Shown piece after piece: positions 16,979 to 38,276 of a stretch of 64,000 nt of DNA (positions are counted from its first letter, which is position 1; each line of letters starts with the position of its first letter). Under the pieces are notes generated by a model, which saw nothing but the letters and a program-made list of their open reading frames with translations, was not told where the DNA came from and did not search any database. Both the position numbers and the translations under genes were made by a program. The stretch is from contig JAJDUU010000021.1 in assembly GCA_022826485.1 (NCBI GenBank), positions 65,558 through 129,557 of the forward strand, in the 5' to 3' direction. This DNA is from Chloroflexota bacterium. Lineage in GTDB: Bacteria > Chloroflexota > UBA11872.

Positions 16979-17929
16979 TTATTCGGCCTGCATCCAATGC
17001 CGATATTCGCTCCAAATGTCGTCTGGTCCCCTGTCCGGCTTGAAGACCAAGCGCCCCTGCCAACGGTACGCTTCGCCGGCCTGGCATTGCTTGATGACGA
17101 TGCCGAAGTCCCACGCCGGGTTGCGCGGCCCGCCCCCGGTCGGCTGGATGGCAAACCGCAGATGGTCATCCGTGCGCAGCATCAGCGCCAGCACCATGTT
17201 CCGCCAGCGGCCGAACATCACCGGCTCGACGTAGCGCAGGGGTTGGATGTTGTGCAGCAGGCGTCCCGCGGGATCCGGTTCGCCGGGCAGCAGCGCCGCT
17301 TCCCGCTCCGAGGCGAAGGCGCGTGCATCGTGCGGCGGCTCGGCCAGCGTCGCGGCCCTGTCGCTCTCCGCCCCTGCCCGAGGCCGGGCGCGAATGTAGG
17401 TGGTCTTGACCTCGGGCCGCCGGATATAGCAGGCCCAGAACAACCCCACCCAGTCGCCGGTGAACGAGCCTGGATGCGGGGACATCACGGTTTCCAGGTC
17501 GACGTAGTGGGGCGGTACGACTCTGAATGTGGTCTGCACGTCGACGCGTTGCGGTGGTTGGACGCGCGTCGTCAGGACTACGGTGGATTCGTCCACGCGC
17601 GTGAGGCTGCTGGGCGTGGGTGCGCCGCCGGAGCGCCCATCGACCCAGCGCGGTCGCATTGATGAGCCGGCGGCGTCGTAGACAAACTCGAAATTCAGGC
17701 CGCTTCCCCCGGCCACGCCGAAGATGTTCTCCGCCGGGCCGTGGCGGCTGTAGAGCTGTCGCATGCCGTTGTAGCCGGTGTACCTGTCGAAGCGAAAAGG
17801 GCCGTCTTCAAAGGTGCCGTCCTTGATCGCGGCCATGCGGGCGTCGTCCCGAGTCGGGGGGTCTGAAGCGTCGGCGTTGTCGACGATCTCGACGAACAGA
17901 TCGCCGGCGGTTATGAACTGGGTGCCCAC
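16979..17929 (-). CDS. Hypothetical protein (316 aa), divergent partner of the tandem paralog pair
   Basis: A long ORF on the opposite strand from no better-supported gene. I recognise no confident family. It shares a ~110-bp divergent region with the 18042 gene. Confidence 0.45.
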   Translation of the reverse strand: MGTQFITAGDLFVEIVDNADASDPPTRDDARMAAIKDGTFEDGPFRFDRYTGYNGMRQLYSRHGPAENIFGVAGGSGLNFEFVYDAAGSSMRPRWVDGRSGGAPTPSSLTRVDESTVVLTTRVQPPQRVDVQTTFRVVPPHYVDLETVMSPHPGSFTGDWVGLFWACYIRRPEVKTTYIRARPRAGAESDRAATLAEPPHDARAFASEREAALLPGEPDPAGRLLHNIQPLRYVEPVMFGRWRNMVLALMLRTDDHLRFAIQPTGGGPRNPAWDFGIVIKQCQAGEAYRWQGRLVFKPDRGPDDIWSEYRHWMQAE

Positions 17930-18041
17930 GCGCGCCCTCCAGTGCTGTCTCGTGGATGAGATAGCGTCTGATACGCTGCGCCGTCAACTGGTGGCCCGCG
18001 AAATCGACGCCGAGACGCGGGTCGGCGGAAGGGGTTGTGCC

Positions 18042-19847: not shown

Positions 19848-21615
19848 CGTGCCGCTCGACCGCCACACCGACCGCTGGCTTTCCGCTGCGCCGGTGTACC
19901 TGGCGGACCTGGACCGCTGCGCGCCGGCCGATGCACAGAGCTCCGAACCGGCGTTGCGGCGCTGGCGCGCGCTGCCGTTCACGGCCGAGGCCTGCGCCGG
20001 CACGATGCTGGTGGCCGGTCCCGAAACCGCGGCGCCCGACGTCACCTATCCCCTCGACGTGGAGGGTTGGCACGCAATCTCGATCGGCGTCTACGCCGAA
20101 ATGCACGGCGAGAGCCGCGCGATGCGCGCCCGACTCACGGGAGAGGCGTCCTTCACCTACCTGGCGACTCACCCCGACGAGGGCAACTTTCAGGCCGAGC
20201 ACCTGCTGGAGCGGTTCTGGAAAATCGCCGACTTGACGGATCGACAGATTGAGCTTGGACAGATCAGGCCCCGCGTCGGATCCGGTGACGAGGCCGGATC
20301 GTTCGTCTGCACACCGGCGAACATCGCCTATATCAAGCTGGTTCCGCTGTCACCGGCCGAGGTAGAGGCGCACCTGGCAGACGAGGCCCGCACGGACCGG
20401 CGGCGCATATTCGCGCACAACGACGCCCACGGCTACCTGTGGAACGGCGGGCCGCTCACGGTCGAAGAGATCCAGCGCGAGGTCGCCCCGTTCGCCGATT
20501 CGGACGTGGCGCGGATCTATTGGGAGGCCGCGGTCGGCGACCTGACGTTCTATCCCTCCAACATCGGCCACATGCCGACGGCCGACGGCGTGGAGGACTT
20601 CATACGCGTCGGCGATCTCACGCACGCGCGAGCCTGGCGGCACTTTCGCGACGAGGGAATCGACCCGCTGCGCATCGCCGCCGAGACCGCGCGGTCCGTC
20701 GGAATTGAGTTCCACGCCTCATACCGCGTTGCCGGTTTCCACTTTGCGCCGCCGATCTACGACGCGTGGAACGCCGGCGGGTTCTACCTGGACCATCCCG
20801 AGCTTCGCTGTGTGACACGCGACGGCACTCCGGCACCGCGCCTGTCGTATGCCTTCCCCGAGACGCGGGAGCTCGTGATTTCGCTCTTGCGAGAGATGGC
20901 GAGCTATCCGGTCAACGGCGTCGCGCTGCTGTTCAATCGCCGCCCGCCGCTCTTGGATTACGAGCAAACGTTGGTTGAGGGATTCCAGGCGCAATTCGGC
21001 ATGGACCCCCGCACGCTGGAGGAGCGCGACGAGCGCTGGCTGCGCTATCGGGCCGGCTTCCTGACCACATTCATGCGTGAGTTGCGCGCCGGACTTGACG
21101 CCACGGACCGCGAGCTCGGACGCACCGATCCCACGCAGATCTCGGCGGTCGTGCTGAGCAGCGAAGCCGAGAACCTCTACCGAGCCATCGACCTTCGCAC
21201 CTGGGTCGCTGAAGGCCTGGTGGACACGGTGATCCCCTATACCTCGGCGCCAAACCTCGACAGCGGCGCGGAGGCCTGGGGCGACCCGGCGTCGATCGAG
21301 TTTTTTACCGAGCTGGTCAGCGGGACCGACTGCGTGCTGGCGCCGAACCTGATGCCGCGCTACATGGCGCCCGCCGAACTGCGGCGACGCGCGCGCGAGC
21401 TCTACGACGCCGGCGTGACGCACCTCTTTGCCTGGGATGCCGTGGTCCTCGGCGGGCGCGTGCTGTTCAACGACTATTGGGACGCGCTGCGCCGGTTGGG
21501 CCATCGCGACGAGATCGAGGCCTGGATCGCAGCGGGCGAGCCATCGCTCGGCTCGACCACCATGCGCCTGTTGACGCTCGGCGACTGGGACATGTCCTAC
21601 GCCACGCCGGGCTAG
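19831..21615 (+). CDS. Large hypothetical protein, paralog B (tandem duplicate of 18042..19847)
   Basis: ATG at 19831 (MTTPGSVPLDRHTDRWLSAAPVYLADLDRC…). It overlaps the end of paralog A by 17 nt and has the same motif set as paralog A. Confidence 0.6.
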   Translation: MTTPGSVPLDRHTDRWLSAAPVYLADLDRCAPADAQSSEPALRRWRALPFTAEACAGTMLVAGPETAAPDVTYPLDVEGWHAISIGVYAEMHGESRAMRARLTGEASFTYLATHPDEGNFQAEHLLERFWKIADLTDRQIELGQIRPRVGSGDEAGSFVCTPANIAYIKLVPLSPAEVEAHLADEARTDRRRIFAHNDAHGYLWNGGPLTVEEIQREVAPFADSDVARIYWEAAVGDLTFYPSNIGHMPTADGVEDFIRVGDLTHARAWRHFRDEGIDPLRIAAETARSVGIEFHASYRVAGFHFAPPIYDAWNAGGFYLDHPELRCVTRDGTPAPRLSYAFPETRELVISLLREMASYPVNGVALLFNRRPPLLDYEQTLVEGFQAQFGMDPRTLEERDERWLRYRAGFLTTFMRELRAGLDATDRELGRTDPTQISAVVLSSEAENLYRAIDLRTWVAEGLVDTVIPYTSAPNLDSGAEAWGDPASIEFFTELVSGTDCVLAPNLMPRYMAPAELRRRARELYDAGVTHLFAWDAVVLGGRVLFNDYWDALRRLGHRDEIEAWIAAGEPSLGSTTMRLLTLGDWDMSYATPG

Positions 21616-21643
21616 CGCCGCCCTGCGGCCAGGCGCCTAGAGC

Positions 21644-22843
21644 GTGACGAGCGAGCCGCTGGTGGACGGACCGCGGGCCTGCGCCCTCGAGGAGTTCGAT
21701 GAGGTCCTCGATCTGCTCAACCACGTGTTCCGCGCCGGGTCCGACCAGAAAACGCAGACCGACTATCCGCTGATCTTCGATCCGGCGCGGCGCGAAAACA
21801 TGCGCGTGGTAAGCGTTGACGGCGCCGTTGTGGCGCACGTACCGGTGGCGCCGCGGGGCGTGGTCATCGACGGCGACGCGTTCACACTCGCCATCATCGG
21901 CGGAACGGTGACCCACCCGGATCATCGGCATCGCGGCTACGCGACCGCCTGCCTGCGGGACGGCGTCCGCATCATGGTCGAGCGCGGCTGGCCGGTCTCG
22001 GCGCTGTGGACGATCGAGCCGACGTATCCGTTCTATCGAAACTCAGGCTGGGAGGCGGTCGGGTCGCAGGGATGGATGTACACGCTGGCCGCGGATGACG
22101 CGGCGCGACTGCGGCCCAGCCACCACCGCATCGCCGTCTACGAACCCGGCAACGACGAGCATCTGAGCGCCATCCGCCGAATTCACGATCGCGAGCCGCT
22201 GCGCATCGCTCGCTCGACCGATGAGTACGCGGTCCTGTTCAGCCTGCCCAAGATGCACACTTTCCTAGCCTTCGAGGGTGATGAGGTCGCCGCCTACCTG
22301 ACGGTTGGACAGGGGACGAACAAGCCAGGTCTGGTCGAGGGCGGCGGCGACCGCCTAGCGCTAGAGGCGTTGGTGCGACGCGCGCGCGCCGAGTGGCCGG
22401 CAGACCAGGAACTCCAGGTCGTGCTGCCGCTCACGCCGTGCGCCCTGGGCGACGTGGTCGAGGCAATCAAGCCGGGGCAACGGCGGCCGGTGGAGAAGGC
22501 CAGCGGCGTCGGGTTTCAGATGATGCGGGTGAACGATCTCGGCTTGCTGCTGCGCCAACTAAAGAACCACCTGCGGCGACGGTCGCCGGGCATCCTCGGC
22601 GACGTGTGCATCGTGTGCGAGGACAGCGACGAGTCCGTGTCGCTGCACGTGCGCGACGGTGAGGTCGAAGTCAGCGCCGAGCGCTTGCCGGAGCCGGTCA
22701 CGTTGAGCCGCCGCCAACTGACGCAGCTGGTCTTTGGCGCGCATGCGTCCGTGCCGCCGCTGGAGCTAACGGGAGCGGCGGCCGCGCTGCTTGAAGCCCT
22801 GTTCCCGCTCTACGCGCCAATCTGGGAGATCGATCACTCATAG
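21644..22843 (+). CDS. GNAT-family N-acetyltransferase with C-terminal SCP2-like domain (Eis-like architecture)
   Basis: GNAT core (…LAIIGGTVTHPDHRHRGYATACLRDGVRIMVERG…). Its length (399 aa) and C-terminal region are consistent with the Eis-type layout. GTG start at 21644. Confidence 0.55.
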   Translation: MTSEPLVDGPRACALEEFDEVLDLLNHVFRAGSDQKTQTDYPLIFDPARRENMRVVSVDGAVVAHVPVAPRGVVIDGDAFTLAIIGGTVTHPDHRHRGYATACLRDGVRIMVERGWPVSALWTIEPTYPFYRNSGWEAVGSQGWMYTLAADDAARLRPSHHRIAVYEPGNDEHLSAIRRIHDREPLRIARSTDEYAVLFSLPKMHTFLAFEGDEVAAYLTVGQGTNKPGLVEGGGDRLALEALVRRARAEWPADQELQVVLPLTPCALGDVVEAIKPGQRRPVEKASGVGFQMMRVNDLGLLLRQLKNHLRRRSPGILGDVCIVCEDSDESVSLHVRDGEVEVSAERLPEPVTLSRRQLTQLVFGAHASVPPLELTGAAAALLEALFPLYAPIWEIDHS

Positions 22844-22859
22844 CGCGTCGCGGCAGCGA

Positions 22860-24338
22860 ATGGAGCATTCCGTGAGCCGTCCCAACATCCTGCTCATCGT
22901 CACCGACCAGCAGCGGGGCGACTGCCTCGGCTTGGCGGGTCACCCGGTGCTGCGGACGCCAAACATGGATTACATCGGCGGCGCCGGCACGCACTTCACC
23001 CGCGGGTACAGCGAGGTGCCGTCCTGCATTCCGGCGCGCCACGTGCTGATGTCGGGGCAAGCCGCGGACGTGAGCGGGATGGTGGGGTTCTACTACCGAT
23101 CCGACGAGTCGCCGTGGCGGCCGCCGGCAACGCTGCCCGGCGAGCTGCGCCGCGCCGGCTACGAGACGCGCCTCATCGGCAAGCTGCACCTGCAGCCGCG
23201 ACGCCGCCGCTGGGGGTTCGACGCCATGGAGCTGGCCGACGGCGTGGGCGGGGCCGACAACGACTACGTGGACTGGCTGCGCGAGCGCGTGCCCGACGAT
23301 CAACTCCAAGCCGCGCACGGCGTCGGCTCCAACAGCTGGGTCGGCCGGCCGTCGCACCTGCCGGAGCACCTGAGCTACTCGGCGTGGGTGGTCACACGGG
23401 CGCTGGAGTATCTGGAGAAGCGCGACCCGTCGACGCCGTTCTTTCTCAACCTCTCGTTCTTTCCGCCGCATCCTCCGCTCGCGCCGTCGCGCGTCTTCTA
23501 TGAGCGCTACGCCACGCTCGATCTCCCGGAGCCGGTGATTGGAGATTGGGTGGAGCCGTTGCCGCCGGGCGCATCGCGCGGGCTCGATCCCATCGGCGGC
23601 TCGCAGCGCCTGCATCTCGATCCGCTGACCATGCACTACTGCCGCGCGGCGTACTACGGGCTGATCAACGAGATCGACGCGCAGCTTGGCCGGCTATTCA
23701 ACGCCATTCGCGGCTCGTTGCTGACCAACACGTTCGTGATGTTCGTGTCCGACCACGGCGAGATGCTCGGCGATCACCACCTGTTCGCGAAGACCGAGCC
23801 GTTCGAGGCGTCCGCCCGGATCCCCTTCATGGCGATGGCGCCCCAGCCGGGACGGGGCAAGGTTAATGCCGAGTTTCCCTCGGGAATCACCTGCGACGCG
23901 CCGGTCGGCCTGCAAGACGTGATGCCCACGTTGCTGGACGCGGCCGGCGTGCCGATCCCGTCGGAGGTGACCGGTCGAAGCCTGCTGCCCTTCATGCGCG
24001 GCGCGCAGCCGGAATGGCGCGATGCCTTGCACGGCGAGCACGCCACCTGGCGCACGCCGGACAGCGGCACCCACTGGCTGGTGACGGCCACCCATAAGTA
24101 CATCTGGCACAGCCAGACCGGGCAAGAGCTCCTGTTCGATCTGGTGGCCGATCCGAATGAGCTGCACGACCTGTCCGGCGAGCAGGACCTCGAGCCGTGG
24201 CGTCGGGGAATGGTCGCGGCGCTGGCCGAGCGCCCGGAAGGTTTCACCGATGGGCGCCGGCTCATACCGGGCCAGCCGCATCGCGCGTTCGTACCGGGCA
24301 AGGGGCCGGTCGTCGAGTGGCCGGACGTGGGGCGCTGA
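22860..24338 (+). CDS. Sulfatase (formylglycine-dependent arylsulfatase family)
   Basis: NILLIVTDQQRGDCLG… and the sulfatase signature C-x-P-x-R (…VPSCIPARHVLMSG…). ATG at 22860. Confidence 0.8.
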   Translation: MEHSVSRPNILLIVTDQQRGDCLGLAGHPVLRTPNMDYIGGAGTHFTRGYSEVPSCIPARHVLMSGQAADVSGMVGFYYRSDESPWRPPATLPGELRRAGYETRLIGKLHLQPRRRRWGFDAMELADGVGGADNDYVDWLRERVPDDQLQAAHGVGSNSWVGRPSHLPEHLSYSAWVVTRALEYLEKRDPSTPFFLNLSFFPPHPPLAPSRVFYERYATLDLPEPVIGDWVEPLPPGASRGLDPIGGSQRLHLDPLTMHYCRAAYYGLINEIDAQLGRLFNAIRGSLLTNTFVMFVSDHGEMLGDHHLFAKTEPFEASARIPFMAMAPQPGRGKVNAEFPSGITCDAPVGLQDVMPTLLDAAGVPIPSEVTGRSLLPFMRGAQPEWRDALHGEHATWRTPDSGTHWLVTATHKYIWHSQTGQELLFDLVADPNELHDLSGEQDLEPWRRGMVAALAERPEGFTDGRRLIPGQPHRAFVPGKGPVVEWPDVGR

Positions 24339-24548: not shown

Positions 24549-25991
24549 TTGACGCGACTTGCCAACCGCACCGTGGTCTTGCGGGTGGCGGATTGGACGG
24601 GACGGCTCTTGCTCCTGGGGGCCGTGGGACTGTGGTGGGGCGGTCACGTGGGGCCGCAGCTTTTCAGCCTGGCGTTCCCGGCGCTGCTGTCGCCGGACCA
24701 TTTGCTGCGGCCACTGGACCCCGAGCTGGATGAGGGTCTAGCCAACACCCTTTCGGCCGCGACGCTGCTGATCGTGGGGCTGTTGGCCTTTGCCAGCGCC
24801 ATCGCCAGGTGGCGACGGACGAGCGGCATGACGGCTCCCGCGGGCTGGGGCGTGCTGGGAGTGGTCGCCTCGGCGATCGCCGTCAGCGAAATGAGCGACA
24901 CGCACAACGACGCCGTGGTGGCCGCCTTACCGCTGGTGTTCGGCGCGGAGGCGGCCGATGCGGACTGGGCTCGCATCGCGCTGCTCGGCCCACTGCTGGC
25001 GGTGTTCGCCCTGGCGATGTGGATATTCGGCCGCCGTGGACTGGCTACGCCGGCGGTGCGGGTGCCCTTTGTCCTGGGCATTGGAGCCTGGCTGCTGGCG
25101 GTCGCCTTCGACTCCACCCAGCCGATCCTGTTGAACGGCCAGGACGACGTGTTGGGAAGCGTCGTTGAAGAGATGCTCGAATTGAGCGGGGCGCTGTTGC
25201 TTGGCCTGAGCGCCGCCACGGACCTGCGCGGGAATGCCGCGTCACGGCCGTCACCGCACCTGTTCCGCGACCGCTGGCTGAAACCGCTTCTCGGGTCGAT
25301 GGCTCTCGTAATCGTGTTGGGCGCTTTGGCATTCGTCGTGGCATTCCGGGTGCTACTTATCGACGCGCGCGCCACGATCGATCACGACACCCTCGATCTG
25401 CGGCTGTCCGCGCAGGAATCGGTCATGCAGGAGCTGCGGATGCCGGCTGATCCCGTCGGGCGGATTGACCTACAGCTGGCGCATCATGACCCGAACGGCC
25501 GCGCCGGAACCGCGGCCATCCGCATCACCGAACCGGCGAATCCGGAACGGACGCTGGCCGTTGGGTCGGTGGAAGTCCCCGTCGGTGATCGACCGCGATG
25601 GCGGAGCATCGATCTCCTGCCCCCGCTGGCCGAGGCTCACGACCAGCAGCTACAGATCTGGGTGATTGCCGACATCACGCCCGGGACCCAGCTTCAGGTC
25701 GGGGTGACACAGGCAGACCGTTATCCGGACGGGGGGTTTTGGATCAACGGGGAGCCCGGCGAGGCGCACCACGACCTGCAATTCGTGGCCTATGGGGCGG
25801 CCGAGCCGACGTTGAGCAAGCTCCAGGCCGTCTGGCAGACCATATCGTCTGACTGGCGCTGGCCGGTTCTGCTGCTCCGATTGGCCATAGGTTTGACGCT
25901 TATCACCGTAACCCCGGTCGCACTGATCGCCGCAGCAATCGGCGGTCTGGGGCGCGAGGGCCGCTCGCGACCAGGCGGCGACAGCGAGTAG
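24549..25991 (+). CDS. Hypothetical polytopic membrane protein
   Basis: 480-aa ORF with several hydrophobic helices in the N-terminal two-thirds and a C-terminal soluble region. TTG start at 24549 is uncertain. Confidence 0.4.
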   Translation: MTRLANRTVVLRVADWTGRLLLLGAVGLWWGGHVGPQLFSLAFPALLSPDHLLRPLDPELDEGLANTLSAATLLIVGLLAFASAIARWRRTSGMTAPAGWGVLGVVASAIAVSEMSDTHNDAVVAALPLVFGAEAADADWARIALLGPLLAVFALAMWIFGRRGLATPAVRVPFVLGIGAWLLAVAFDSTQPILLNGQDDVLGSVVEEMLELSGALLLGLSAATDLRGNAASRPSPHLFRDRWLKPLLGSMALVIVLGALAFVVAFRVLLIDARATIDHDTLDLRLSAQESVMQELRMPADPVGRIDLQLAHHDPNGRAGTAAIRITEPANPERTLAVGSVEVPVGDRPRWRSIDLLPPLAEAHDQQLQIWVIADITPGTQLQVGVTQADRYPDGGFWINGEPGEAHHDLQFVAYGAAEPTLSKLQAVWQTISSDWRWPVLLLRLAIGLTLITVTPVALIAAAIGGLGREGRSRPGGDSE

Positions 25992-26029
25992 CCCCGACTG
26001 GGGCGCGGGCGCCCGCGGCGGAGCGCTCG

Positions 26030-27490
26030 CTAGATCAGACCGGCCCGCCGCAGGGCGCGCGGCACACGGCTAGCTTGGGCGCGAGCCATGGCGTCGAGCG
26101 TGCCCGCTAGCTCCCCTGCCTGGAAGGCGGCGGCCGGATCAGCCATCGGCCGCGTGCGCAGCCAATCCGCCGCGACGACGGCGTCGTTGTAGTCGCCGAG
26201 GATGTCTTGGAGCGCGGCGAGACGACGCGCTAGGCGCTTCACGGGCTTGCCGCCGTGCCGTTGCACCGCCTCGGCGGCGTAGCGCGCGCGCTTGGCCACG
26301 ATGCGCATGCGGTGCAGCTCGTCGGCGCTGGTGGCGGAGTCGACCTTTGACGCCACGCGGCTCAGGCGTCCCTCGGCCCGGCGGGCCAGAGACCGCAAGT
26401 CGCGCGGCGCCATGTCGTGTGCGTCGTCGAGCACCTGCGGCGACGACGATGCCTCGATGACGCGATCGAGCAACTGGTCGGTGCGCTCGCTCTGAAGCAT
26501 GGTCAGGAGCTCTTCCCGCGCTTCCTGCCGCTCGACCAGCAACCGCGCCAGGACCGACTCGGGCGTGGTGCGCGATGGGTCCAGGGTTCGAGCCGCCGTT
26601 TCGAGCGTCTCGAGCATCACGTCGGCATCGCGAATTGGCTGCATCAGCCCAGCCAGCCACCGGAGCTCGTCGCCCAGCGCACGTCGCCAGGCGTCGTCCA
26701 AGAGGGGTCCAAACGTGCGCATGTTGGAGCGCAGCCGACGCGTGGCGACTCGGGCTTGATGCACGGCCTCGGGATCCTCGTCCAAGACAACCCCCGGCAG
26801 CGCCAGCACCAGTCGCCGCGCGGCCTCGGCGAACGCGGTCCGAATGACGTCGGCCGCCGTGGCGTGGGCGCCGAGCCGGGATACCACCACCTCGGGAGAC
26901 GCCGCGGCGTCGGCATCGATGGCGCGCCGCAGCTTCGGCACGTGAATCGGCACGGTCGCGCCGGCCGCCTGCAAGCGTGTGACGACGTCCCGCACGGTTT
27001 CCTCGGACACATCCGGCTGCAACTCGACTTCCACCTCGCGAAACTGCTTGGCCATGGCGCCGCCGGCATAGGCCGTCACGGCGTCCTCGGAAATCTCGGC
27101 GAGGCCTTGTCCCTCGGCGTCGGTCACATCCGTGGACCGGCGCGTCGTTTCCAAGCGAACCAGCGGGACAACCGGACGCGCGCGAGTGAATGGCCGCACG
27201 ATGGTGAGCGCGTGGCGCGGAGGAGCGTCCGCCGGGCCGTCCACGGGAACCTCGTCTCGCGCGAGCGCGGTGCCGTCGTCGAGCACGGGGAGCTTGACCA
27301 GCCATCCCTCGCCGACGCGATATCGCAGCGTGCAGCCCCAGCGCAGGAGTCGCAGGTCGGCGGTGTCGTAGTACCTGGTGACCAGCTGTCGAGGCTCGTG
27401 GCGGCGCGTCACGTAGGCGGCCAGCGCCCGGTCAAGGTTCAACTCAACGAGCGGATCGATGCCCAGCTTGTGCTCGCGCTCACGGGTCAC
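26030..27490 (-). CDS. CYTH-domain (triphosphate tunnel metalloenzyme) + CHAD-domain protein
   Basis: GTG at 27490 gives VTREREHKLGIDP… (CYTH E-x-E-x-K start). A long helical CHAD region follows (…VHQARVATRRLRS… …MRIVAKRARYAAEA…). Confidence 0.65.
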   Translation of the reverse strand: MTREREHKLGIDPLVELNLDRALAAYVTRRHEPRQLVTRYYDTADLRLLRWGCTLRYRVGEGWLVKLPVLDDGTALARDEVPVDGPADAPPRHALTIVRPFTRARPVVPLVRLETTRRSTDVTDAEGQGLAEISEDAVTAYAGGAMAKQFREVEVELQPDVSEETVRDVVTRLQAAGATVPIHVPKLRRAIDADAAASPEVVVSRLGAHATAADVIRTAFAEAARRLVLALPGVVLDEDPEAVHQARVATRRLRSNMRTFGPLLDDAWRRALGDELRWLAGLMQPIRDADVMLETLETAARTLDPSRTTPESVLARLLVERQEAREELLTMLQSERTDQLLDRVIEASSSPQVLDDAHDMAPRDLRSLARRAEGRLSRVASKVDSATSADELHRMRIVAKRARYAAEAVQRHGGKPVKRLARRLAALQDILGDYNDAVVAADWLRTRPMADPAAAFQAGELAGTLDAMARAQASRVPRALRRAGLI

Positions 27491-27738
27491 CGGCAAGGCC
27501 CAACTCCTGTCCGCCCAACGCCCCGCAGCCCCACGATCCGGCAGCGCGGGCCGACTATCATATAAGCCCCTCGCCGCCCCCTGAGGACCACGTTGTGAGA
27601 CTCGCCGGACTCGCTGGCCTCTTGCGGGCATGGGCGGCGCGGAGTCGCCGAGGGACGGGGGCAACAGCCGGCACGGAGCGAGACGGCGGCGCGTCGGACG
27701 GTGGCCCAGCCGCGCCATCGAGTCGCCGCGCGCCAGCC

Positions 27739-28497
27739 ATGTCGGACCAAGGCGGCATGCCGCCGGGCCCATTTCCGGGGCGGCTGTTCGTTGTGGAAGG
27801 CATTGACGGCTCCGGCAAGAGCACCCAGCTCGATCTGCTGCACAAGTGGCTGACCAGCCGCGGCGTGCTGGTGGTGTCGAGCGAGTGGAACTCGTCGCCA
27901 ATCGTTCGCGGCACCACCCGACGGGGAAAGCGGCGCCGCTTGTTTTCCCCAATGACGTTCAGCCTGATCCACTGCGCGGACTTGGCGAATCGGGTCTACG
28001 AGCAAATCCTCCCGGCGCTGCACGCCGGGGCCACGGTGCTCGCCGACCGCTATATCTACACGGCGTTCGCCCGTGACGCCGCCCGCGGCGTCAATCCCGT
28101 TTGGCTGCGCCACCTCTACGCCTTCGCGCCCAAGCCAACCATGGCGTTCTACTTCGACGTGCCGCTGCCGGAGGCGATTCGGCGGATCGAAGACGGACGG
28201 GCGCGGCTGAAGTACTACGAGGCCGGCATGGACCTGGGGCTGAGCAGCGATCTCAACCGCTCGTTCCAGGCGTTTCAGGGCATGATCCAAACCGAATACG
28301 AGCGGATGCTCGATGAGTTCGGACTGATCTCCATCGATGCGACCGCCCCGCCAACCGAGCAGCAGCACAGAGTCCGGGAGCTTGTGGAGCCCCACATCGA
28401 CGGCGCGCTCAAGATTCAGGACGGCGGCCTGGCCGACGCCCTAACGGCATCGGGGCTCACGGGGCGCTACCTGGACACGCTCGGGGCCCGACGATGA
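27739..28497 (+). CDS. Thymidylate-kinase-like P-loop kinase, paralog A (canonical Walker A)
   Basis: ATG at 27739. The Walker A is …LFVVEGIDGSGKSTQ… and the DRY-type motif is …LADRYIYT…. Confidence 0.65.
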   Translation: MSDQGGMPPGPFPGRLFVVEGIDGSGKSTQLDLLHKWLTSRGVLVVSSEWNSSPIVRGTTRRGKRRRLFSPMTFSLIHCADLANRVYEQILPALHAGATVLADRYIYTAFARDAARGVNPVWLRHLYAFAPKPTMAFYFDVPLPEAIRRIEDGRARLKYYEAGMDLGLSSDLNRSFQAFQGMIQTEYERMLDEFGLISIDATAPPTEQQHRVRELVEPHIDGALKIQDGGLADALTASGLTGRYLDTLGARR

Positions 28498-29201
28498 CGA
28501 ACCGGCAAGCGCGGGTGCTGCGCTTCTTCGGGGAGCCGCCCACCGGATGGCACGACCGGGAGGTCCTGGGCCGCATCATCGTGTTCGAAGGCCCCGACGG
28601 CGCCGGGCGATCGACCCATATCCGGCTCATCAAGGAGTGGCTGGAGGACATGGGGCTTCCCGCCGTGGATACCGGACTCACCCGCTCCAATCTTGCCGGG
28701 CGCGGCATCGACCGGGCCAAGACGGGGCACCGGTTGGACGCCGTGACGCTCAACCTGTTCTACGCCACCGACTTCTGCGACCGCCTGGAGCGGGTGATCC
28801 TGCCGTCAGCCCGCGCCGGAATGGTGGTGCTCGCCGACCGCTATTTCTATTCGCTCATCGCGCGGGCCTGTGTGCGGGACATGCCGCGTGAGTGGATGGA
28901 CGGGCTCTATTCGTTCGCCCCGATCCCCGACAAGGTGATTTATCTCGACGTTGATGTGGATCAGCTGCTACCGCGGGCGCTGCATGCCGGCAACATCGAC
29001 TATTGGGAATCGGGGCAGGACTTCCTGAAGGGAACCGATCCGCATTCGACCTATATCGAGTATCAGACGGACATGATCCGAGAGCTCCGCGAGTTGGCCG
29101 GCATCCATGACTTCGACGTCGTGGACGCGCGCGGACCCATCACGCAAACCTTCGAATCCATCCGCGGGCGCATTCAGGAAGTGATCGCCGACATCGCCTG
29201 A
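28494..29201 (+). CDS. Thymidylate-kinase-like protein, paralog B (degenerate Walker A: K->R)
   Basis: …IIVFEGPDGAGRSTH… (GxGRST instead of GxGKST) and …LADRYFYS…. There is a 4-nt ATGA overlap with paralog A. Confidence 0.6.
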   Translation: MTNRQARVLRFFGEPPTGWHDREVLGRIIVFEGPDGAGRSTHIRLIKEWLEDMGLPAVDTGLTRSNLAGRGIDRAKTGHRLDAVTLNLFYATDFCDRLERVILPSARAGMVVLADRYFYSLIARACVRDMPREWMDGLYSFAPIPDKVIYLDVDVDQLLPRALHAGNIDYWESGQDFLKGTDPHSTYIEYQTDMIRELRELAGIHDFDVVDARGPITQTFESIRGRIQEVIADIA

Positions 29202-29225
29202 GCCTGCGCCGCTTGGCAGCGACTC

Positions 29226-30323
29226 CTAGTCCCCGAGCTCCACGCCCGTGTCGCGCGCAGCGGCGATCCAATGATGGTCGAGCGGAACGGTCTTGCGCTC
29301 GCCGGCAACATCGCCAAGGTCGACCGGCCCGACCTTCCCGCCCAGGACGCCGATCATGCTGCCCGTGACACCGTCGGCCACGTAGCGCGCGCAGGCGGTT
29401 CCGAGATGGGTGGCCAACACACGGTCGAAGGGCGACGGCGTACCGCCGCGCTGCACGTGTCCCAGGATCGTCAGCCGCGATTCCAGACCGGTCAACTCCT
29501 CCAGCTGGCGGGCAACCTGCTGGGATTGGGCGCCAAGTGAATCGCCGTGCCCATTGCGTCGTCCGCCGGCTGCCTTGGCGTTGCCACGCTCGTTCCCCGA
29601 GGCGCCTTCGACGGGCCGCGCCCCCTCCGAAATCGCCACGATGCTGAATCCACGACCGCCCATGCTGCGGCGGCGGATCGCTTCCGCAACCGTCTCGATG
29701 TCATAGGGAATCTCGGGGATGAGGACGACGTCGGCGCCGGCGGCCAGACCCGCCCCGAGGGCAAGCCAGCCGGTGTTGTGACCCATCGTCTCGACCACGA
29801 TGATCCGATGATGGCTGTGCGCCGTGCTGTGCAGGCGGTCGATGGCCTCGGTGGCAATCGTCAGCGCCGTGTTGAACCCGATGCTCACGTCGGTGCCGGC
29901 AACGTCGTTGTCGATGGTCTTGGGCAGAGTGACGATCCGCAGACCTTTGCGAAGCAACCGGTAGGCGCTGGCCTGCGTGCCCCCGCCGCCCAGGCAGACG
30001 AGCGCATCCAAGCGGTGTTTCTCGAAGTTTTCGGCCATGATGTCGGTCATATCCGCCTTGCGCCCGGCCACCGGCATGCGATGCGGCTTGTCGCGACTTG
30101 CCCCCAGCATCGTGCCGCCGAGGGTCAGGATTCCCGACAGGTTGTCGTTGTTGAGCTCGATGAATCGGTTTTCCATGAGCCCGCGAAAGCCATCGCGGAA
30201 GCCGACCACACGCATGCCGAACTGTTGAATCGCGGTCTTGCCGACGCCGCGAATGGCCACGTTCAATCCCGGGCTGTCGCCGCCTGCCGTGAGGACCCCG
30301 ATGTTTCTCAACGACAGCTGCAC
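29226..30323 (-). CDS. pfk: 6-phosphofructokinase
   Basis: …[19 protein letters not shown]…, …GGGGTQ…, …[10 protein letters not shown]…, …MGHNTGWLA… and …HVQRGG… are all classic PFK-A family motifs. Confidence 0.85.
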
Positions 30324-30781: not shown

Positions 30782-31672
30782 ATGACTCAGTGCCATCGAC
30801 CTCCGCAGTTTTCCCTTGCGACGAGCATGTGGGGCGAAGTGCCAACGACAAGCCTCGCCGAGACTCTGTCGGATGTGACCGCAGCGAACTTTGAGGCGAT
30901 CGAGCTCTGGCCGCCGCTTTGTCCCCTGTTTTCCGACAAGATGCGCACCAACGCTCGAGAGGCGTTCGCGCGGACTAACGTTCGGCCGGACACGATGCAC
31001 GCGCCGCTCACGTCAACCGTGAAGCTCTCGGCGGTCGAGGAGCTCGACCGGCGCCTTGCGGTGTACGAGGTTGCCGCATGGCTGTCACCCTTTGCCGACC
31101 TCGGCGGCGACGTGGTGGTGATTCACCTGACGGGCGCCGACTTCAGCGACGAAGCGTCGCATGGCATCAACGTCGAAACGGCCGTCGATGCGGCCCGCCG
31201 GTCACTCGACGAGCTCTATACGATCGCCGATCGCCTGGGTCTGCGGATCGCCTGCGAAAACCTGATGGAGCGCGGCACACCGCGGCCGCTCTGTCGGATG
31301 GAGCAGTTGCGAGCGTTCGTCGACCCGTATCCCGCAACCGTCGGAATCTGCCTGGACACCGGACACGCGGTGGTCAACGGCCTCAATCCGGCGTCGGAGG
31401 CGCGCGCCGCGGGCGACCGGCTGATTGCGACGCACCTGCAGGACACCGATGGCATCGATGATCGGCATTGGGTGCCGGGCGCCGGGCGGATCAACTGGGA
31501 CGAGCTCGTGTCAGCCCTTCACGAGATTGACTACACCGGCAAGTGGACGTTCGAGCTGAGCGCGCGCGACAGCGATCCCGCATCCGTGGCAAGCGCCGCG
31601 ATGCAGGTGGCGTTGGTCTGGAGTGGTCAGGGAAGCGTGGATTCGGCGGATTTCAGCCGCCGAGCTGACTAG
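30782..31672 (+). CDS. Sugar phosphate isomerase/epimerase (xylose-isomerase-like TIM barrel)
   Basis: …FEAIELW…, …IACENLM… and …CLDTGHA… motifs. Confidence 0.6.
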   Translation: MTQCHRPPQFSLATSMWGEVPTTSLAETLSDVTAANFEAIELWPPLCPLFSDKMRTNAREAFARTNVRPDTMHAPLTSTVKLSAVEELDRRLAVYEVAAWLSPFADLGGDVVVIHLTGADFSDEASHGINVETAVDAARRSLDELYTIADRLGLRIACENLMERGTPRPLCRMEQLRAFVDPYPATVGICLDTGHAVVNGLNPASEARAAGDRLIATHLQDTDGIDDRHWVPGAGRINWDELVSALHEIDYTGKWTFELSARDSDPASVASAAMQVALVWSGQGSVDSADFSRRAD

Positions 31673-31804
31673 CACAGGCCGTCACGCCGGGCAATTCTGG
31701 ACCAGAAGGAATTCACAGCGGTATAGTCCGACGACAGGCGCCGGCAACACTGAGGTGGGTTTTTTGTCCCATCGGCAGGCCGGCCACATGGGGAGGGCAC
31801 ACGT

Positions 31805-33778
31805 ATGAGCCAACACTTACGCGCAGGCGTCTCGCGACGGCGCGTCCTCAAGGGCGCTGCCGCGGGACTGTTTGGCGCAGCCGGGGCAGCCGTGTTGGCG
31901 GCGTGCGGTGAAACGCAGGTCGTCACCAAGGAAGTCATCAAGGAAGTCCCGGTCGAGACGGTCGTGACCCGGGAAGTGGTCAAGGAAGTTCCGGTCGAGA
32001 CGGTCGTGACCAAGGAAGTCGTCAAGGAAGTCGCGGTCGAGAAGCTGGTGACCACCGAGGTCGTCAAGCAGGTCGAGGTCATCAAGGAAGTCCCGGTTGA
32101 GGTCGAGAAGGTCGTGACGAAGGAAGTCGAGGTCATCAAGGAAGTCACGGCCGAGATGATGATTCCTGAGGGTCCGATCAGCGGCGGCACGCTGAATCAC
32201 AGCGGCAGCGGCCCGAACCACCAGGACATCTTCAACCCGCTCAAGCAGGTCAGCAGCTCGCAGGCCTACATCACGGACTACGTGTTCATGCCCCTGTGGT
32301 ATGGCGACACGTGGGGCGCCGGTGACACGCCGGCCATGACGGGCGAGTGGGACAAGGGCGTGGCCAGCAGCTGGGACGAGGTCGAGCGGGCCCGCGTCTA
32401 CAACTTCCACCTCAACCCCGACGTCACCTGGCACGACCAGGTGCCGCTGACGGCGGACGACGTGCTGTTCGGCGCCAAGATGGGGCTGGACAAGAACTAC
32501 GGCTCGGGTCAGCACAAGAAGGCCTGGGGCCGGATCGAGGGCGCGGAAGCCTGGGGCGAGAACCCCACGGACAACGTGGAGGACGTTCCCGGCATCACCA
32601 AGCTGGACGAGATGACGGTGCAGATCGCGATCGATCGGCCCGACTCCGCCTGGTGGGCGAGCCGCGACTGGCACCTCCCGCCGATGGCCCGGCACCACTA
32701 CGAGGGTCTTGACCCGGCGACGGCAATCCAGACCCGGGCGCTGAACCCGCTGGGCAACGGCCCGATGATTTGGGAGCGCTACGTCACCCAGCAGTTCGCC
32801 GACATGACGGCGCACAAGGCCTTCGCGTACGGCGCGCCGTACGTCGATGACTACGTCGTCCGCTACGGTGAGCGAAACGCGCTGGACGCGGCCATGGAGG
32901 CCGGCGAGCAGGACTTCCACCGCGCCAGCAACATCGAGGCCTTCCAGCGACTCGCGAGCCTTGGACACCTGCGGCCATTCCCGCAGCGCTCGCCGTTCGG
33001 CGGGCACGTGTTCTTGAACCAGTCCGCCGAGATCTTCTCCGACATGACCCTCGAGCAGCAGTCGCTGATGATCGAGGCCATGGTGCGGGCAGTGGACCGG
33101 GACACGATCAACAACGAGCTCCACGCGGGCACGCTGTTCATCTCGGACTACATCTTCGAGCACGTGGCGCTGATGCAGGACCCGCCGGAAGGCACCTTCC
33201 GCGCCATGCCTTACGACCCGGACGCGGCGCGCGCCCTGGTCGAGGAGGCCCAGTGGGACTCCGAGAAGGAGATCCAGTGGATCAAGTGGGGGCCACCGAC
33301 GCCGACGGACCTGGCGCTCAAGAACTACTGGGAGCAGGTGGGCATCAAGGTTGAGTTCTTCCTGGTCGACGGCTCAGCGGTGATCGAGAAGCTGTACCAG
33401 GAGCGGGTCCACGACCTGGTCCTCGCCAACATGGGCGGCGACCAGGCCGTGGTGGATGCGTGTCTGCGCGTCTGCAGCGACCGGGTCTACGAGCTCGGCG
33501 GCTGGAACCACTCGAACATCAACCGCCCGTGGATCGACGAGGCCTACGCCGACATGTTCGCGGCGGAGGACAACGAGGCGCTGCGCGAGCGATGGATCGA
33601 ATTCGCCACGCGACTCCACTCCAAGGGCAACATGGTGGCCGGGCTGCTGTGGCGCGGTTCGCTGCGGAACCTGTATCACAGGCGTCTGCAGGGGGCGTTC
33701 TACATGCAGTTCTACGCCATGCCGGTGCACTCGCCGATCGAGCGGGTGTGGCTGGACGAGTACTGGGACGAGCGGTAG
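31805..33778 (+). CDS. ABC transporter substrate-binding lipoprotein, family 5 (peptide/oligosaccharide type), with repetitive linker
   Basis: Tat motif SRRRVLKGAAAGLFGAAGAAVLAAC plus lipobox Cys. A ~75-aa KEVPVETVVT repeat linker precedes an SBP_bac_5-like body. There is an RBS GGAGG about 10 nt upstream of ATG 31805. Confidence 0.8.
   Translation: MSQHLRAGVSRRRVLKGAAAGLFGAAGAAVLAACGETQVVTKEVIKEVPVETVVTREVVKEVPVETVVTKEVVKEVAVEKLVTTEVVKQVEVIKEVPVEVEKVVTKEVEVIKEVTAEMMIPEGPISGGTLNHSGSGPNHQDIFNPLKQVSSSQAYITDYVFMPLWYGDTWGAGDTPAMTGEWDKGVASSWDEVERARVYNFHLNPDVTWHDQVPLTADDVLFGAKMGLDKNYGSGQHKKAWGRIEGAEAWGENPTDNVEDVPGITKLDEMTVQIAIDRPDSAWWASRDWHLPPMARHHYEGLDPATAIQTRALNPLGNGPMIWERYVTQQFADMTAHKAFAYGAPYVDDYVVRYGERNALDAAMEAGEQDFHRASNIEAFQRLASLGHLRPFPQRSPFGGHVFLNQSAEIFSDMTLEQQSLMIEAMVRAVDRDTINNELHAGTLFISDYIFEHVALMQDPPEGTFRAMPYDPDAARALVEEAQWDSEKEIQWIKWGPPTPTDLALKNYWEQVGIKVEFFLVDGSAVIEKLYQERVHDLVLANMGGDQAVVDACLRVCSDRVYELGGWNHSNINRPWIDEAYADMFAAEDNEALRERWIEFATRLHSKGNMVAGLLWRGSLRNLYHRRLQGAFYMQFYAMPVHSPIERVWLDEYWDER
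31915..32150 (+). repeat. In-frame tandem coding repeats encoding (K/R)EV(P)VE(T)VVT linker in SBP1
   Basis: DNA unit ~gtcaaggaagtcccggtcgagacggtcgtgaccaaggaagtc repeated with variants. The protein reads VVTKEVIKEVPVETVVTREVVKEVPVETVVTKEVVKEVAVEKLVTTEVVKQVEVIKEVPVEVEKVVTKEVEVIKEV. Confidence 0.8.
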
Positions 33779-33860: not shown

Positions 33861-34228
33861 GCGTTGCGCCGTCTCCGCGGTGAGCCGCGGCGGTTCAGCC
33901 GTTAGGCACTGTTGACGAGTTTCCGCTTTCTAAACTACTTTGCCCCAAAGTGCGGGCTGACGTTGGGCGGATCGATGCCGAATTCAGGCATTCCAACGGA
34001 CAACTGGGACCGCACGCGGCCTGCGCCGCGAGGCCGACGAGCCATTAGGCCGGGCCAGCCGGACAAGCCCTACTTCAACGTTCTTCCGGCCGCCCACTCC
34101 TCCACAGCACACCGTTCCGCGGTCTATCGCCGTCTGACTGAAGGGAGGAGGTCCAGACCCAAACGCGGATAGCCGCTGGAGCCGTGGTCGGACACTGAAT
34201 CTGTCGCACTGTGCAAACACGAGAGGGA

Positions 34229-36292
34229 ATGCCGATGCTTGACGTTGGTAAGCGAATGATGACCCGCCGAAACCTGATTCGGGGAGCGAGCGCCGGCCTC
34301 TTTGGGGCAGCGGGCGCGGCCGTGCTCGCCGCGTGCGGCGAGGCGCAGGTCGTCGAGCGGGTCGTCACGCAGGAAGTGATCAAAGAGGTTCCGGTCGAGA
34401 CCATCGTGACCAAGGAAGTGGTCAAGGAGGTCCCGGTCGAGTCGGTGGTGACCAAGGAGGTCGTCAAGGAAGTCCCGGTCGAAAAGATCGTGACCCAGCA
34501 GGTCGTCCAACAGGTCGTCAAGGAAGTCCCGGTCACGATCGAGAAGGTGGTTGAGGTCGAGAAGGTCGTCACGGTCGAGGTCGAGAAGGTGATCGAAGTC
34601 GAGAAGGTCGTGACCGTCGAGGTCGAGAAGGTCATCGAGACAGAGAAGATCGTCGAGCGGCCCACGTCCGTGCAGGCCGGTCAGCCGGTCTACGGCGGGG
34701 ACCTGAGGGTCAGCTGGGGCGGCGGGATCGCCGGCGCGAGCTTCAACAGCTACACGCAAATCTCCAGCGACCAGGCCATCGTCAACGTGGAGGTCGGCAC
34801 TTCGCTGATCCACGGCGCCAGTTGGGGCGACGGCCCGTTCGCGTCGCTTGAAACCCGCTTCGGCGACGGCGTGGCCAAGTCCTTCGAAGAGGTGGCGCCG
34901 GAAGAGTCCTATATCTTCCACCTCGACGAGCGCTTCACCTTCCACGACGGCGCGCCGGTGACGGCGGACGACTTCATGTACACGTTCCACATCGTGACGC
35001 ACCCGGACTGGGGCGTGGGATATGGCTCCCGGCAGCTCGAACAGCTGAAGGGATTCAAGGCGTGGGCTGAGAACCCGACGGACAACATCGAAGACACCGG
35101 CGGGGTGAAGAAGATCGACAACATGACGATCCAGCTCACCACCGACGGCGTGCAGGAGCCCTTCTGGGCGAGCCCGAACCCCATGCAGCCCATGCCCAAG
35201 CACATCTATGAGACGCTGGACCCAGCCACGGCGTTCGACACGATGGCGCTGCAACCGGTCGGCAATGGGCCGTTCAAGTTCGAGCGCTACGTCGACCAGC
35301 AGTTCGCCGAGCTGAGCCGCAACGACGCCTATCCCTACGGTGCGCCGTGGGTGGACCGCTACATCGTGCGCTATGGCGACCCGGACGCGCTCGACGCCGC
35401 GACGGAGGCGGGCGAGCTCGACTTCCTGCGCACCAGCAGCGTCGAGGCCTATGCGCGCCTGGCCGGCATGCCGCACATGCAGGCACAGCCCATGCGATCG
35501 CCGTTTGCGAGCTTGATCTTCCTCAACCACAACATCTTTGCGGAGAAGTGGCCGGACGTGAACGTCTCGCTGATGACCGAGGCGATGGTTATCGGGGCCG
35601 ACCGTGTGTCGATCGCCAACAACATCATGGCCGGCACGCTGTTTGTGGATGACTACCACTTCAGCCATATCCGGTTCATGCAGGACGTGCCGATGGACGC
35701 CTATCGGCCGCTGCCTTACAACCCGGAAGCGGCCAAGGCCCTGCTCGAGGAGTCCGGCTGGAACCCCGACGACACGCTCACATGGCTCGGGTGGTTCGCG
35801 CCGCGTCCGCAAGACCTCGCGCTGATGGCGAACTGGCTCGACATGGGCCTGAAGGTGGAGTTCGAAAGAGTCGACCGTGCCGTGGTGGTCGAGCACCTGT
35901 GGGAGACCGGCGCCAACGAAATGGTGGTGGCCAACCTGGGCGGCTCGCAGGACGTGGGTGACGCGTTCCGGCGGATCGGATGCGACAACATCTGGCCCAA
36001 CGGCTACAACTACCACCACACCTGCTTCCCGGAGATCGACGCGCTCTATCAGGCGGCGTTCGACGCGCCGAATAAGGAGGCGCTGAAGGAGGCCTGGATC
36101 GAGATCTCCCGCTACCTGCATGGTCGCGGGACCATGATCGCCGGGCAGCTGTGGAAGCACTCGCTGCTGTTCCTCTACCACCGACGCGTGAGCGGACCGT
36201 GGTGGATGAACAACTACGCGATTCCGGCGCGCAGGCCCACCCACCGCGTGTGGCTTGACCCGCGCTGGTCCGGTAGGGACTACGTCGGGTAG
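34229..36292 (+). CDS. ABC transporter substrate-binding lipoprotein, family 5, paralog of 31805..33778, with longer repetitive linker
   Basis: MPMLDVGKRMMTRRNLIRGASAGLFGAAGAAVLAAC, then a ~105-aa KEVPVE/VEVEKV repeat linker and an SBP body colinear with SBP1 (…NPTDN[VI]ED…, …L[NQ]P[LV]GNGP…, …YG[AP][PW]VD[DR]Y[VI]VRYG…). The RBS is gagaggg before ATG 34229. Confidence 0.8.
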   Translation: MPMLDVGKRMMTRRNLIRGASAGLFGAAGAAVLAACGEAQVVERVVTQEVIKEVPVETIVTKEVVKEVPVESVVTKEVVKEVPVEKIVTQQVVQQVVKEVPVTIEKVVEVEKVVTVEVEKVIEVEKVVTVEVEKVIETEKIVERPTSVQAGQPVYGGDLRVSWGGGIAGASFNSYTQISSDQAIVNVEVGTSLIHGASWGDGPFASLETRFGDGVAKSFEEVAPEESYIFHLDERFTFHDGAPVTADDFMYTFHIVTHPDWGVGYGSRQLEQLKGFKAWAENPTDNIEDTGGVKKIDNMTIQLTTDGVQEPFWASPNPMQPMPKHIYETLDPATAFDTMALQPVGNGPFKFERYVDQQFAELSRNDAYPYGAPWVDRYIVRYGDPDALDAATEAGELDFLRTSSVEAYARLAGMPHMQAQPMRSPFASLIFLNHNIFAEKWPDVNVSLMTEAMVIGADRVSIANNIMAGTLFVDDYHFSHIRFMQDVPMDAYRPLPYNPEAAKALLEESGWNPDDTLTWLGWFAPRPQDLALMANWLDMGLKVEFERVDRAVVVEHLWETGANEMVVANLGGSQDVGDAFRRIGCDNIWPNGYNYHHTCFPEIDALYQAAFDAPNKEALKEAWIEISRYLHGRGTMIAGQLWKHSLLFLYHRRVSGPWWMNNYAIPARRPTHRVWLDPRWSGRDYVG
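34340..34665 (+). repeat. In-frame tandem coding repeats encoding KEVPVE.VVT / VEVEKV linker in SBP2
   Basis: VVTQEVIKEVPVETIVTKEVVKEVPVESVVTKEVVKEVPVEKIVTQQVVQQVVKEVPVTIEKVVEVEKVVTVEVEKVIEVEKVVTVEVEKVIETEKIV. Confidence 0.8.
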
Positions 36293-37995: not shown

Positions 37996-38276
37996 CGGGA
38001 ACCCCCAGGTCCCGCCCGGCAATCGGACTTCATGCTCCGGATATCAAAGTTCGCTGCCATCACGGGATCCCTCGCCTTCCTGTATCTGGGACGAGTTTGC
38101 GGGCCACAACCCCAATGTCGCGACACTCCAGATTCAGCCGCGTGGCAGGTTCCGTCAAGCGCGTACGCTCGTGCTCCCGAACTCGGGTCATCTGCCAGAT
38201 GAGACGGCCGCGCGTGGAAGCTTGGAAGAGTGCGCGGTCTCCCGTTTGAACTCAAGGGCGATGCACAGAAATAATC

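Follow-up and report, generated by a model that had tools for sequence, protein, structure and literature searches.

Family-3 polyphosphate kinase (PPK3) was described in Sulfolobus acidocaldarius by Hofmann et al. (bioRxiv 2024; J Biol Chem 2026, PMC12995831), where Saci_2019 (the catalytic subunit, cPPK3) and Saci_2020 (the regulatory subunit, rPPK3), two proteins that had been annotated as thymidylate kinases, together form an α2β2 polyphosphate (polyP) kinase. Neither has dTMP kinase (dTMPK) activity, the real thymidylate kinase (Tmk) of this archaeon being Saci_0893 (PMC12995831). On its own, rPPK3 is inactive, which was explained by the replaced arginine of its DRX motif, and cPPK3 by itself has about one tenth of the activity of the 1:1 complex; the reaction can run both ways and strongly favors formation of ATP from polyP and ADP (PMC12995831). 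The operon has the order sixA-ppx-cPPK3-rPPK3-CHAD, and genomes bearing PPK3 encode a canonical dTMPK elsewhere and usually lack PPK1 and PPK2 (PMC12995831). Paralogs with PPX, SixA, CHAD and Pst neighbors in "few taxonomically scattered bacteria" fall into the same clade and were predicted to be PPK3 (PMC12995831). Here we describe a pair of adjacent Tmk-like genes, paralogs A and B, in a 64,000-nt stretch of a Chloroflexota bacterium (assembly GCA_022826485.1, contig JAJDUU010000021.1, positions 65,558–129,557 of the forward strand). This whole stretch is called the window, and statements on neighboring or absent genes refer to these 64 kb. The comparison below makes it likely that A and B are the catalytic and regulatory subunits of a PPK3.

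Paralog A was located at 27595–28497 on the + strand (300 aa, counted from a GTG start at 27595) and paralog B at 28494–29201 on the same strand (235 aa). The two genes overlapped by the tetranucleotide ATGA (28494–28497), read directly in the sequence, in which ATG is the start of B and TGA the stop of A, an arrangement consistent with translational coupling. Both proteins matched the Pfam family Thymidylate_kin (PF02223), with 73.1 bits for A and 62.5 bits for B, which bears out, in position and in letters, the overlapping Tmk-fold tandem reported in a preliminary description of this DNA. The motifs given there were also read in the sequence: the P-loop was EGIDGSGKST in A and EGPDGAGRST in B, the Walker A Lys of the latter being replaced by Arg, and LADRY was present in each. 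Scores against the NCBI dTMP kinase model TIGR00041 were 70.7 bits for A and 71.3 bits for B, both under the equivalog cut-off of 83.25 bits, indicating that neither A nor B is an ordinary Tmk. The Pfam scan at E ≤ 0.01 gave no match of either protein to PPK2 (PF03976).

Compared with all PDB sequences, A and B shared the same top match, S. tokodaii ST1543, listed as a "probable thymidylate kinase", of which entry 5h70 is named as the S. tokodaii cPPK3 homolog (PMC12995831). A matched ST1543 (2plr/5h70) with 161.7 bits (2e-46, 42% identity) and canonical Tmks with at most 57 bits (∼1e-14), while B matched ST1543 (2plr, 4nzy, 4rzx, 5h70) with 104.9 bits (4.6e-29) and canonical Tmks with ∼39 bits. 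An AlphaFold2 model of B (pLDDT 87.1, pTM 0.87) gave the same result at the level of structure, its eight best PDB matches being ST1543 chains (TM-score 0.86–0.89), ahead of every canonical Tmk.

Operons of S. acidocaldarius and S. tokodaii (L084 and L088), Nitrososphaera (L085) and two others (L086 and L087) served as references. A was 42% identical to Saci_2019 and 55% identical to the Nitrososphaera c subunit, and B was 30% identical to Saci_2020, 48% to the Nitrososphaera r subunit and 38–39% to two other r-type subunits. In a neighbor-joining tree rooted on two canonical Tmk fragments, A fell in the c clade with Saci_2019 and the S. tokodaii and Nitrososphaera c subunits, a clade that was monophyletic in 34 of 50 bootstraps, which is moderate support. 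B fell in the r clade (41 of 50 bootstraps) together with Saci_2020, the r subunits of S. tokodaii and Nitrososphaera, L086 and a subunit from an Acidoferrales metagenome-assembled genome (MAG). The separation of c and r implies that the duplication predates the spread of the pair, and that A and B are orthologs of cPPK3 and rPPK3, respectively. The catalytic subunit with a regulatory pseudo-kinase partner suggested in the preliminary description was thus supported, whereas nothing was found in favor of its alternative, a modified-nucleotide kinase.

The signature of paralog A comprised the Walker A motif GIDGSGKST, an EWNSS motif, the basic patch RRGKRRR, DRY, and Arg/Lys residues in the lid, within a Tmk-like domain that began at about residue 60. 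Across the 236 bacterial and archaeal sequences of the c family, the Walker A Lys, DRY and the lid Arg/Lys were kept, with conservation of ∼0.8–1.0, mostly 0.98–1.0, over GIDGSGKST, LADRY, R149, R154, and K158; residues R62, K64, R65, and R66 of the basic patch were also conserved. Relatives of A beyond the window's clade were 63–71% identical to it, a higher conservation than that of B. The residues of the dTMP site were placed by alignment to Thermus thermophilus Tmk. In the LLFSADR motif of canonical Tmks, we take the Phe to stack on thymine and the Arg to bind the dTMP phosphate. In the c family, a His (His78 in A) aligned to this Phe, and most relatives had Phe at the Arg position, A being unusual in having Leu82; the canonical REPGG was replaced by EWNSS family-wide. 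This pattern agrees with the published observation that dTMP-binding residues are not conserved in cPPK3 and that the positively charged cleft is (PMC12995831).

For paralog B, 774 relatives were obtained at E ≤ 1e-5, of which the best 120 were 55–96% identical and came from MAGs of Chloroflexota, Actinomycetota, and Eisenbacteria. Arg occupied the Walker A position in all 119 close B-family proteins that covered the P-loop, and DRY was present in all 119. These proteins also kept R124, R128, R161 (in the lid), and K76, as well as the invariant stretch TGLxRSxLAGxGIxRAKxGHxLDxxTLNLFYATDFxDRLE, and more than 60 columns were invariant across phyla. Some relatives had also lost P-loop glycines (e.g., EATDAAGRST). 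A phmmer search over 1.84 billion representatives gave 6370 matches at E ≤ 1e-3, 111 of them at 1e-30. Among the best 150, which were inspected, r-type proteins nearly always combined G-R-[ST]-T with DRY, rare r lineages had Cys, Ser, His or Thr at the Walker A Lys position, and Lys itself was confined at this site to c-type proteins, marked by EWNSS, and to other Tmk-like proteins. Similarly, DRY occurred in nearly all r representatives clustered at 50% identity in which the motif search detected DRX. The preliminary description had allowed that B orthologs might retain Lys, making the substitution a local point change or a sequencing error; this was not so, as Arg was found in all of the 119 close relatives and in almost every r-type representative at 50% identity. 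The Walker A Arg to which the preliminary description drew attention is thus the hallmark of the widespread rPPK3 type.

This type differs from the characterized subunit in the manner of its degeneration. A degenerate P-loop, expected of an rPPK3, was found in B and in the r subunits of Nitrososphaera (GRST) and S. tokodaii (GRT), all with Arg. A replaced DRX arginine was not found in B, which has LADRY, and DGY was seen only in r subunits of the Sulfolobales, indicating that loss of this arginine is a feature of that order and not of the whole r clade. The published cause of rPPK3 inactivity is therefore inapplicable to B, because B keeps DRY. The occasional non-basic residues in place of the Lys suggest that the r P-loop is unused for phosphotransfer, and by analogy with Saci_2020 we infer that bacterial rPPK3 is inactive as a kinase.

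One genome per GTDB species was scanned with two B-specific peptide patterns, which were found in at least 326 genomes, and the best 80 loci were kept; ORFs were called and clustered in 83 fetched loci (84 with the window, 81 non-redundant). The nearest relatives (87–97% identity) were from Chloroflexota MAGs, which places the window in an uncultured member of this phylum; the isolate names of these MAGs (COS3_bin, RHO3_bin) resemble those of bins from marine-sponge metagenomes. Wherever a related locus included DNA upstream of B, the gene immediately preceding B was an A ortholog, so that the co-occurrence on which the idea of a two-subunit enzyme depended was confirmed, and the 4-nt overlap was retained in 67 of the 83 loci. 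Adjacency of A and B, retention of the overlap, and the Lys to Arg change in 119/119 relatives are together far beyond chance. Some genomes carried two cPPK3-rPPK3 pairs (L014 and L016 on OZ253578.1; L059 and L060 in MAG assembly DATDKZ01); on one Chloroflexota chromosome two pairs, 63–65% identical to B of the window, were 1.9 Mb apart.

The neighborhoods of these pairs were rich in genes of polyP metabolism. At least one of Ppx, CYTH-CHAD, and a SixA-like protein was encoded within 10 kb in 54 of the 81 non-redundant loci. Ppx-GppA was directly upstream on the same strand in 41 loci and a SixA-like histidine phosphatase directly downstream in 26; in Pfam and NCBIfam these were the best matches of the respective neighbors, under the cut-off. 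PstA and PstB, both above their NCBIfam equivalog cut-offs, were found a few kb upstream in many loci. Together with Ppx-GppA, the commonest neighbor was a CYTH-CHAD gene, seen in 39 of 84 loci; in the window's clade it lies upstream of the pair and is divergent, in most other loci it is downstream and convergent, and its association with A and B, proposed from this genome alone, therefore extends beyond it in two arrangements. The set of Ppx, two Tmk-like proteins, SixA, and CHAD matches the S. acidocaldarius operon saci_2017-2021.

Several proteins joined the two subunits in a single chain. P0124 (427 aa) and P0360 (460 aa) were c-r fusions, the r P-loop of the latter being fully degenerate; P0379 (650 aa) was a c-r fusion extended by a Ppx-GppA domain III/HD region; and P0401 (471 aa) consisted of two degenerate Tmk-like halves. 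The r-type P-loops in single-chain PPK3s were degenerate in various ways (GHYQ, GTS). Natural c-r fusions and the conserved overlap lend indirect support to a putative A–B complex, although some fusions could be assembly artifacts, as one case was reported to be (PMC12995831).

Taken together, the recognition of A as a cPPK3 ortholog and of B as an rPPK3 ortholog, their signature residues, the operon structure, and the polyP neighborhoods of their relatives point to a PPK3, an identification that we regard as probably correct. The polyP-linked module that the preliminary description preferred over a housekeeping tmk is thus upheld through the family match. In such an enzyme, A would act as a P-loop kinase that reversibly transfers phosphate between ATP/ADP and the end of a polyP chain, the direction favored in the characterized enzyme being ADP + polyP(n) → ATP + polyP(n-1). 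B, a paralog devoid of the Walker A Lys, would have no kinase activity of its own, by analogy with Saci_2020, and would assemble with A, presumably as α2β2 as in Sulfolobus, and raise the activity of A. The ATGA overlap would couple translation of the two subunits, and the locus would function as a small polyP-handling module.

Several observations weigh against this assignment. It extends to A and B a function shown for a single archaeal enzyme, to which they are just 42 and 30% identical, respectively, and B has a highly conserved surface, with DRY and several conserved Arg residues intact. About one third of the related loci had no polyP genes nearby, and one Chloroflexota clade had FolE, RpiB, FolB, NYN, and CysS neighbors instead. 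In the window itself, CYTH-CHAD was the only polyP gene, with Ppx, SixA, and Pst all absent. When it was searched by tblastn with Ppx, SixA, the Sulfolobus CHAD protein, and two canonical Tmk fragments, only the Tmk fragments matched, and they matched A and B; likewise, when its larger ORFs beyond the locus were swept with Pfam, neither PPK1, PPK2, and Ppx nor a third Tmk was detected. Moreover, its crystallographers called the S. tokodaii cPPK3 homolog an unusual thymidylate kinase.

The invariant Walker A Arg, the intact DRY, Arg124, Arg128, Arg161, and more than 60 invariant positions led us to consider that the r type of bacteria and Nitrososphaera is a ligand-binding subunit, which would hold a nucleotide or polyP without turnover and would not be a dead scaffold like Saci_2020. 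We advance this only tentatively and think it rather unlikely; if true, bacterial PPK3 would be allosterically gated, sensing energy charge, or would have a second, non-canonical active site. A related proposition, that B supplies a second ligand site that is functional, rather than serving as a pure scaffold, seems unlikely. It would account for the strong conservation of B, including DRY, R124, R128, lid R161, and K76, and for the contrast with Saci_2020, which lost the DRX Arg; it also gains from the low identity (30–42%) of bacterial c and r subunits to the characterized enzyme and from the PPK2 classes, in which acceptor specificity varies within one fold (PMC12995831). However, the Walker A position of r proteins tolerates Cys, Ser, His, and Thr, and P-loop glycines are lost elsewhere (EATDAAGRST), variation that fits a P-loop unused for phosphotransfer, while the nucleotide-site residues of A are identical to those of cPPK3.

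Very unlikely is that A is a real or second thymidylate kinase and B a decaying or inactive duplicate, neither having a role in polyP metabolism. Both proteins do exceed the Pfam Thymidylate_kin threshold, source databases name their relatives "dTMP kinase", the S. tokodaii homolog was published as an unusual thymidylate kinase, and no other tmk is present within the 64-kb window. Yet both are under the dTMP kinase equivalog cut-off, and, given the roles stated above for the residues concerned, the family-wide replacement of REPGG and of the LLFSADR Phe, together with that of the Arg position in A, argues against dTMP as substrate. B cannot be described as decaying with more than 60 columns invariant across phyla, and both the polyP neighborhoods and the fusion with a Ppx domain speak against a Tmk. 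The ortholog Saci_2019, furthermore, has no dTMPK activity, which belongs to the separate Saci_0893 (PMC12995831).

A phosphate-themed metabolic module of A, B, and the adjacent phosphofructokinase (PFK), in which the pair would be, e.g., the phosphoryl donor for a PPi- or polyP-dependent PFK, is extremely improbable: the PFK gene converges on B from 25 nt downstream and, under the cut-off, matches the mixed-substrate PFK group, but it lies on the opposite strand and adjoins A-B only in the window's own clade (7 loci), being a remnant in L001, L002, and L011 and absent at L009 and L012. The gene itself (29226–30323, − strand, 365 aa) was full length in the window and matched Pfam PFK with 328 bits, so the convergent PFK neighbor of the preliminary description is real, while its inclusion in a phosphate theme did not hold up, and we rejected PFK as a member of the module. 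Next to rPPK3, this gene is in decay in sister lineages, its remnant in the 87%-identical genome being an 82-aa called ORF (L001/L002/L011, 10748–11107).

Ten sister loci were aligned at the DNA level over the region upstream of A. A 27-nt element, GCGCGGGCCGACTATCATATAAGCCCC, at 27544–27570 (+) was nearly invariant in this clade and was followed by a Shine-Dalgarno sequence, GAGGA (27583–27587), 7 nt upstream of the GTG at 27595–27597. The first 16 codons from this GTG (MRLAGLAGLLRAWAAR) were kept in the ten sister loci, with changes that were mostly synonymous by eye, and were followed by a variable, indel-free linker rich in Arg, Gly, and Ala. Together they make up a clade-specific N-terminal extension of ∼48 aa (27595–27738), from which more distant cPPK3s are free. 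The start of A is thus probably the GTG at 27595, as judged from this alignment. An ATG at 27739 was considered as the start and rejected, as sister genomes have ATT, GAG or GTG there. The region of GCGCGGGCCGACTATCATATAAGCCCC (27544–27597 with the Shine-Dalgarno sequence and GTG) probably serves the operon as promoter and 5' leader, as a candidate only; the promoter assignment is unconfirmed because a sigma-70 consensus scan of 25900–29400 gave no match. Terminator-like matches in a terminator scan were at background level only.

The gene divergent from A (26030 to ∼27490, − strand) encodes a protein of ∼486 aa, with an assumed start codon. It matched CHAD with 175.7 bits and CYTH with 23.2 bits, exactly the Pfam threshold, and thus carries the two domains that the preliminary description had assigned to it. 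Its conserved part begins at ∼27490 with M-T-R-E-R-E-H-K, which forms the ExExK motif, and an ortholog in a related locus had clearer scores (CYTH 55 bits, CHAD 210 bits). Matches to the CHAD-domain PDB entries 6qv5, 6qv7, and 3e0s were also obtained. This protein would probably bind polyP through CHAD and hydrolyze short tri- or tetraphosphates through CYTH. Just beyond it, at 24549–25991 (+), the window encodes a 480-aa hydrophobic protein with no Pfam or NCBIfam match, which had two to three tandem paralogs in sister genomes (48–70% identity; L008 4400–7411, L009 2430–7402).

Other features of the window were noted in passing. Its G+C content was ∼67%, and an Rfam scan found four tRNAs and nothing else. 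The PPK3/CHAD module was flanked by glycan-degradation genes (17778–24338 and 36388–39881), a set comprising two GHL10-like proteins, an arylsulfatase, a BNR-repeat protein (sialidase-like), and a GH20 hexosaminidase. A neighboring pair of SBP_bac_5 solute-binding proteins (31805–33778 and 34211–36292) both start with 42-nt tandem repeats (31918–32068 and 34371–34657) that encode a 14-residue unit rich in Lys, Glu, and Val (…KEVPVETVVT…); these look like a repetitive linker behind the signal region, and they generate a long spurious antisense ORF (31669–32190). A 742-aa protein at 7241–9469 (−) combined CopC, CopD, and a C-terminal cytochrome c, a copper-resistance fusion architecture. An NYN-domain gene at 4201–4902 (+) lay 23 kb from the A-B pair; in another Chloroflexota clade, the one with FolE, RpiB, FolB, and CysS but no polyP neighbors, an NYN-domain gene was directly downstream of rPPK3 (L032 10812–11402, and 14 further loci), which is possibly a coincidence.

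With respect to novelty, the A-B pair is a rediscovery of PPK3 and a functional re-annotation for this window, not a new system. Two points go slightly past the literature on the present sequence comparisons: the bacterial family appears much larger than described, and the widespread r type has degenerated differently from the one studied. The at least 326 species-representative genomes with B-specific patterns are well above the published "few" bacteria, and the Lys to Arg change with DRY intact in the widespread r form bears on how the regulatory subunit works. PPK3 genes carry the annotation "dTMP kinase" everywhere, which hides polyP metabolism from view in the annotated genomes of these lineages. 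Recognition of PPK3 would provide many uncultured Chloroflexota and Actinomycetota genomes with a polyP kinase/polyP:ADP phosphotransferase, and PPK3 could conceivably be the main polyP enzyme of many of them.

Among known systems, the CYTH-CHAD neighbor aligned to solved stand-alone CHAD proteins that bind polyP (6qv5, 6qv7), its CYTH part being recognized only at the threshold, and would share its domain architecture with E. coli YgiF, which we take to be a CYTH plus CHAD protein. With canonical Tmks (TIGR00041; T. thermophilus 5x7j, E. coli 4tmk), A and B share the fold, P-loop, DRY, and lid. They differ in scoring under the family cut-off, in the replacement of REPGG and of the Phe and Arg positions of LLFSADR (to which we assign the roles stated above), in an added Lys/Arg-rich patch, and in that their genes are paired and near polyP genes. 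The two-domain class II PPK2 of Pseudomonas aeruginosa (PA3455) offers a parallel in organization, with an active P-loop unit, an inactive homologous unit that promotes oligomerization, and polyP-dependent nucleotide phosphorylation (PMC12995831). That enzyme belongs, however, to another P-loop kinase family, has its units fused in one chain, and uses AMP/GMP and not ADP as acceptor.

The closest counterpart is the S. acidocaldarius PPK3, which likewise is encoded by overlapping neighbor genes of the Tmk fold, the catalytic gene preceding the regulatory one, the c subunit keeping the Walker A Lys, EWNSS, basic patch, and DRY, and the r subunit being a degenerate paralog. A CHAD protein is encoded next door in both, and many bacterial relatives also carry Ppx and SixA in the operon. 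The window differs in the low identity of its subunits (only 42% for c and 30% for r), in the absence of Ppx and SixA near the pair, and in the N-terminal extension of A (∼48 aa). Its CHAD protein has an N-terminal CYTH domain and is divergent, whereas that of Sulfolobus is co-directional. Finally, the r subunits have degenerated at different sites: Saci_2020 keeps the Walker A Lys (GKT) and has lost the DRX Arg (DGY), whereas B has a Walker A Arg and keeps DRY. Both changes are combined in the S. tokodaii r subunit (GRT and DGY), and the pattern of B recurs in that of Nitrososphaera (GRST, DRY) and in most of the bacterial r subunits sampled.

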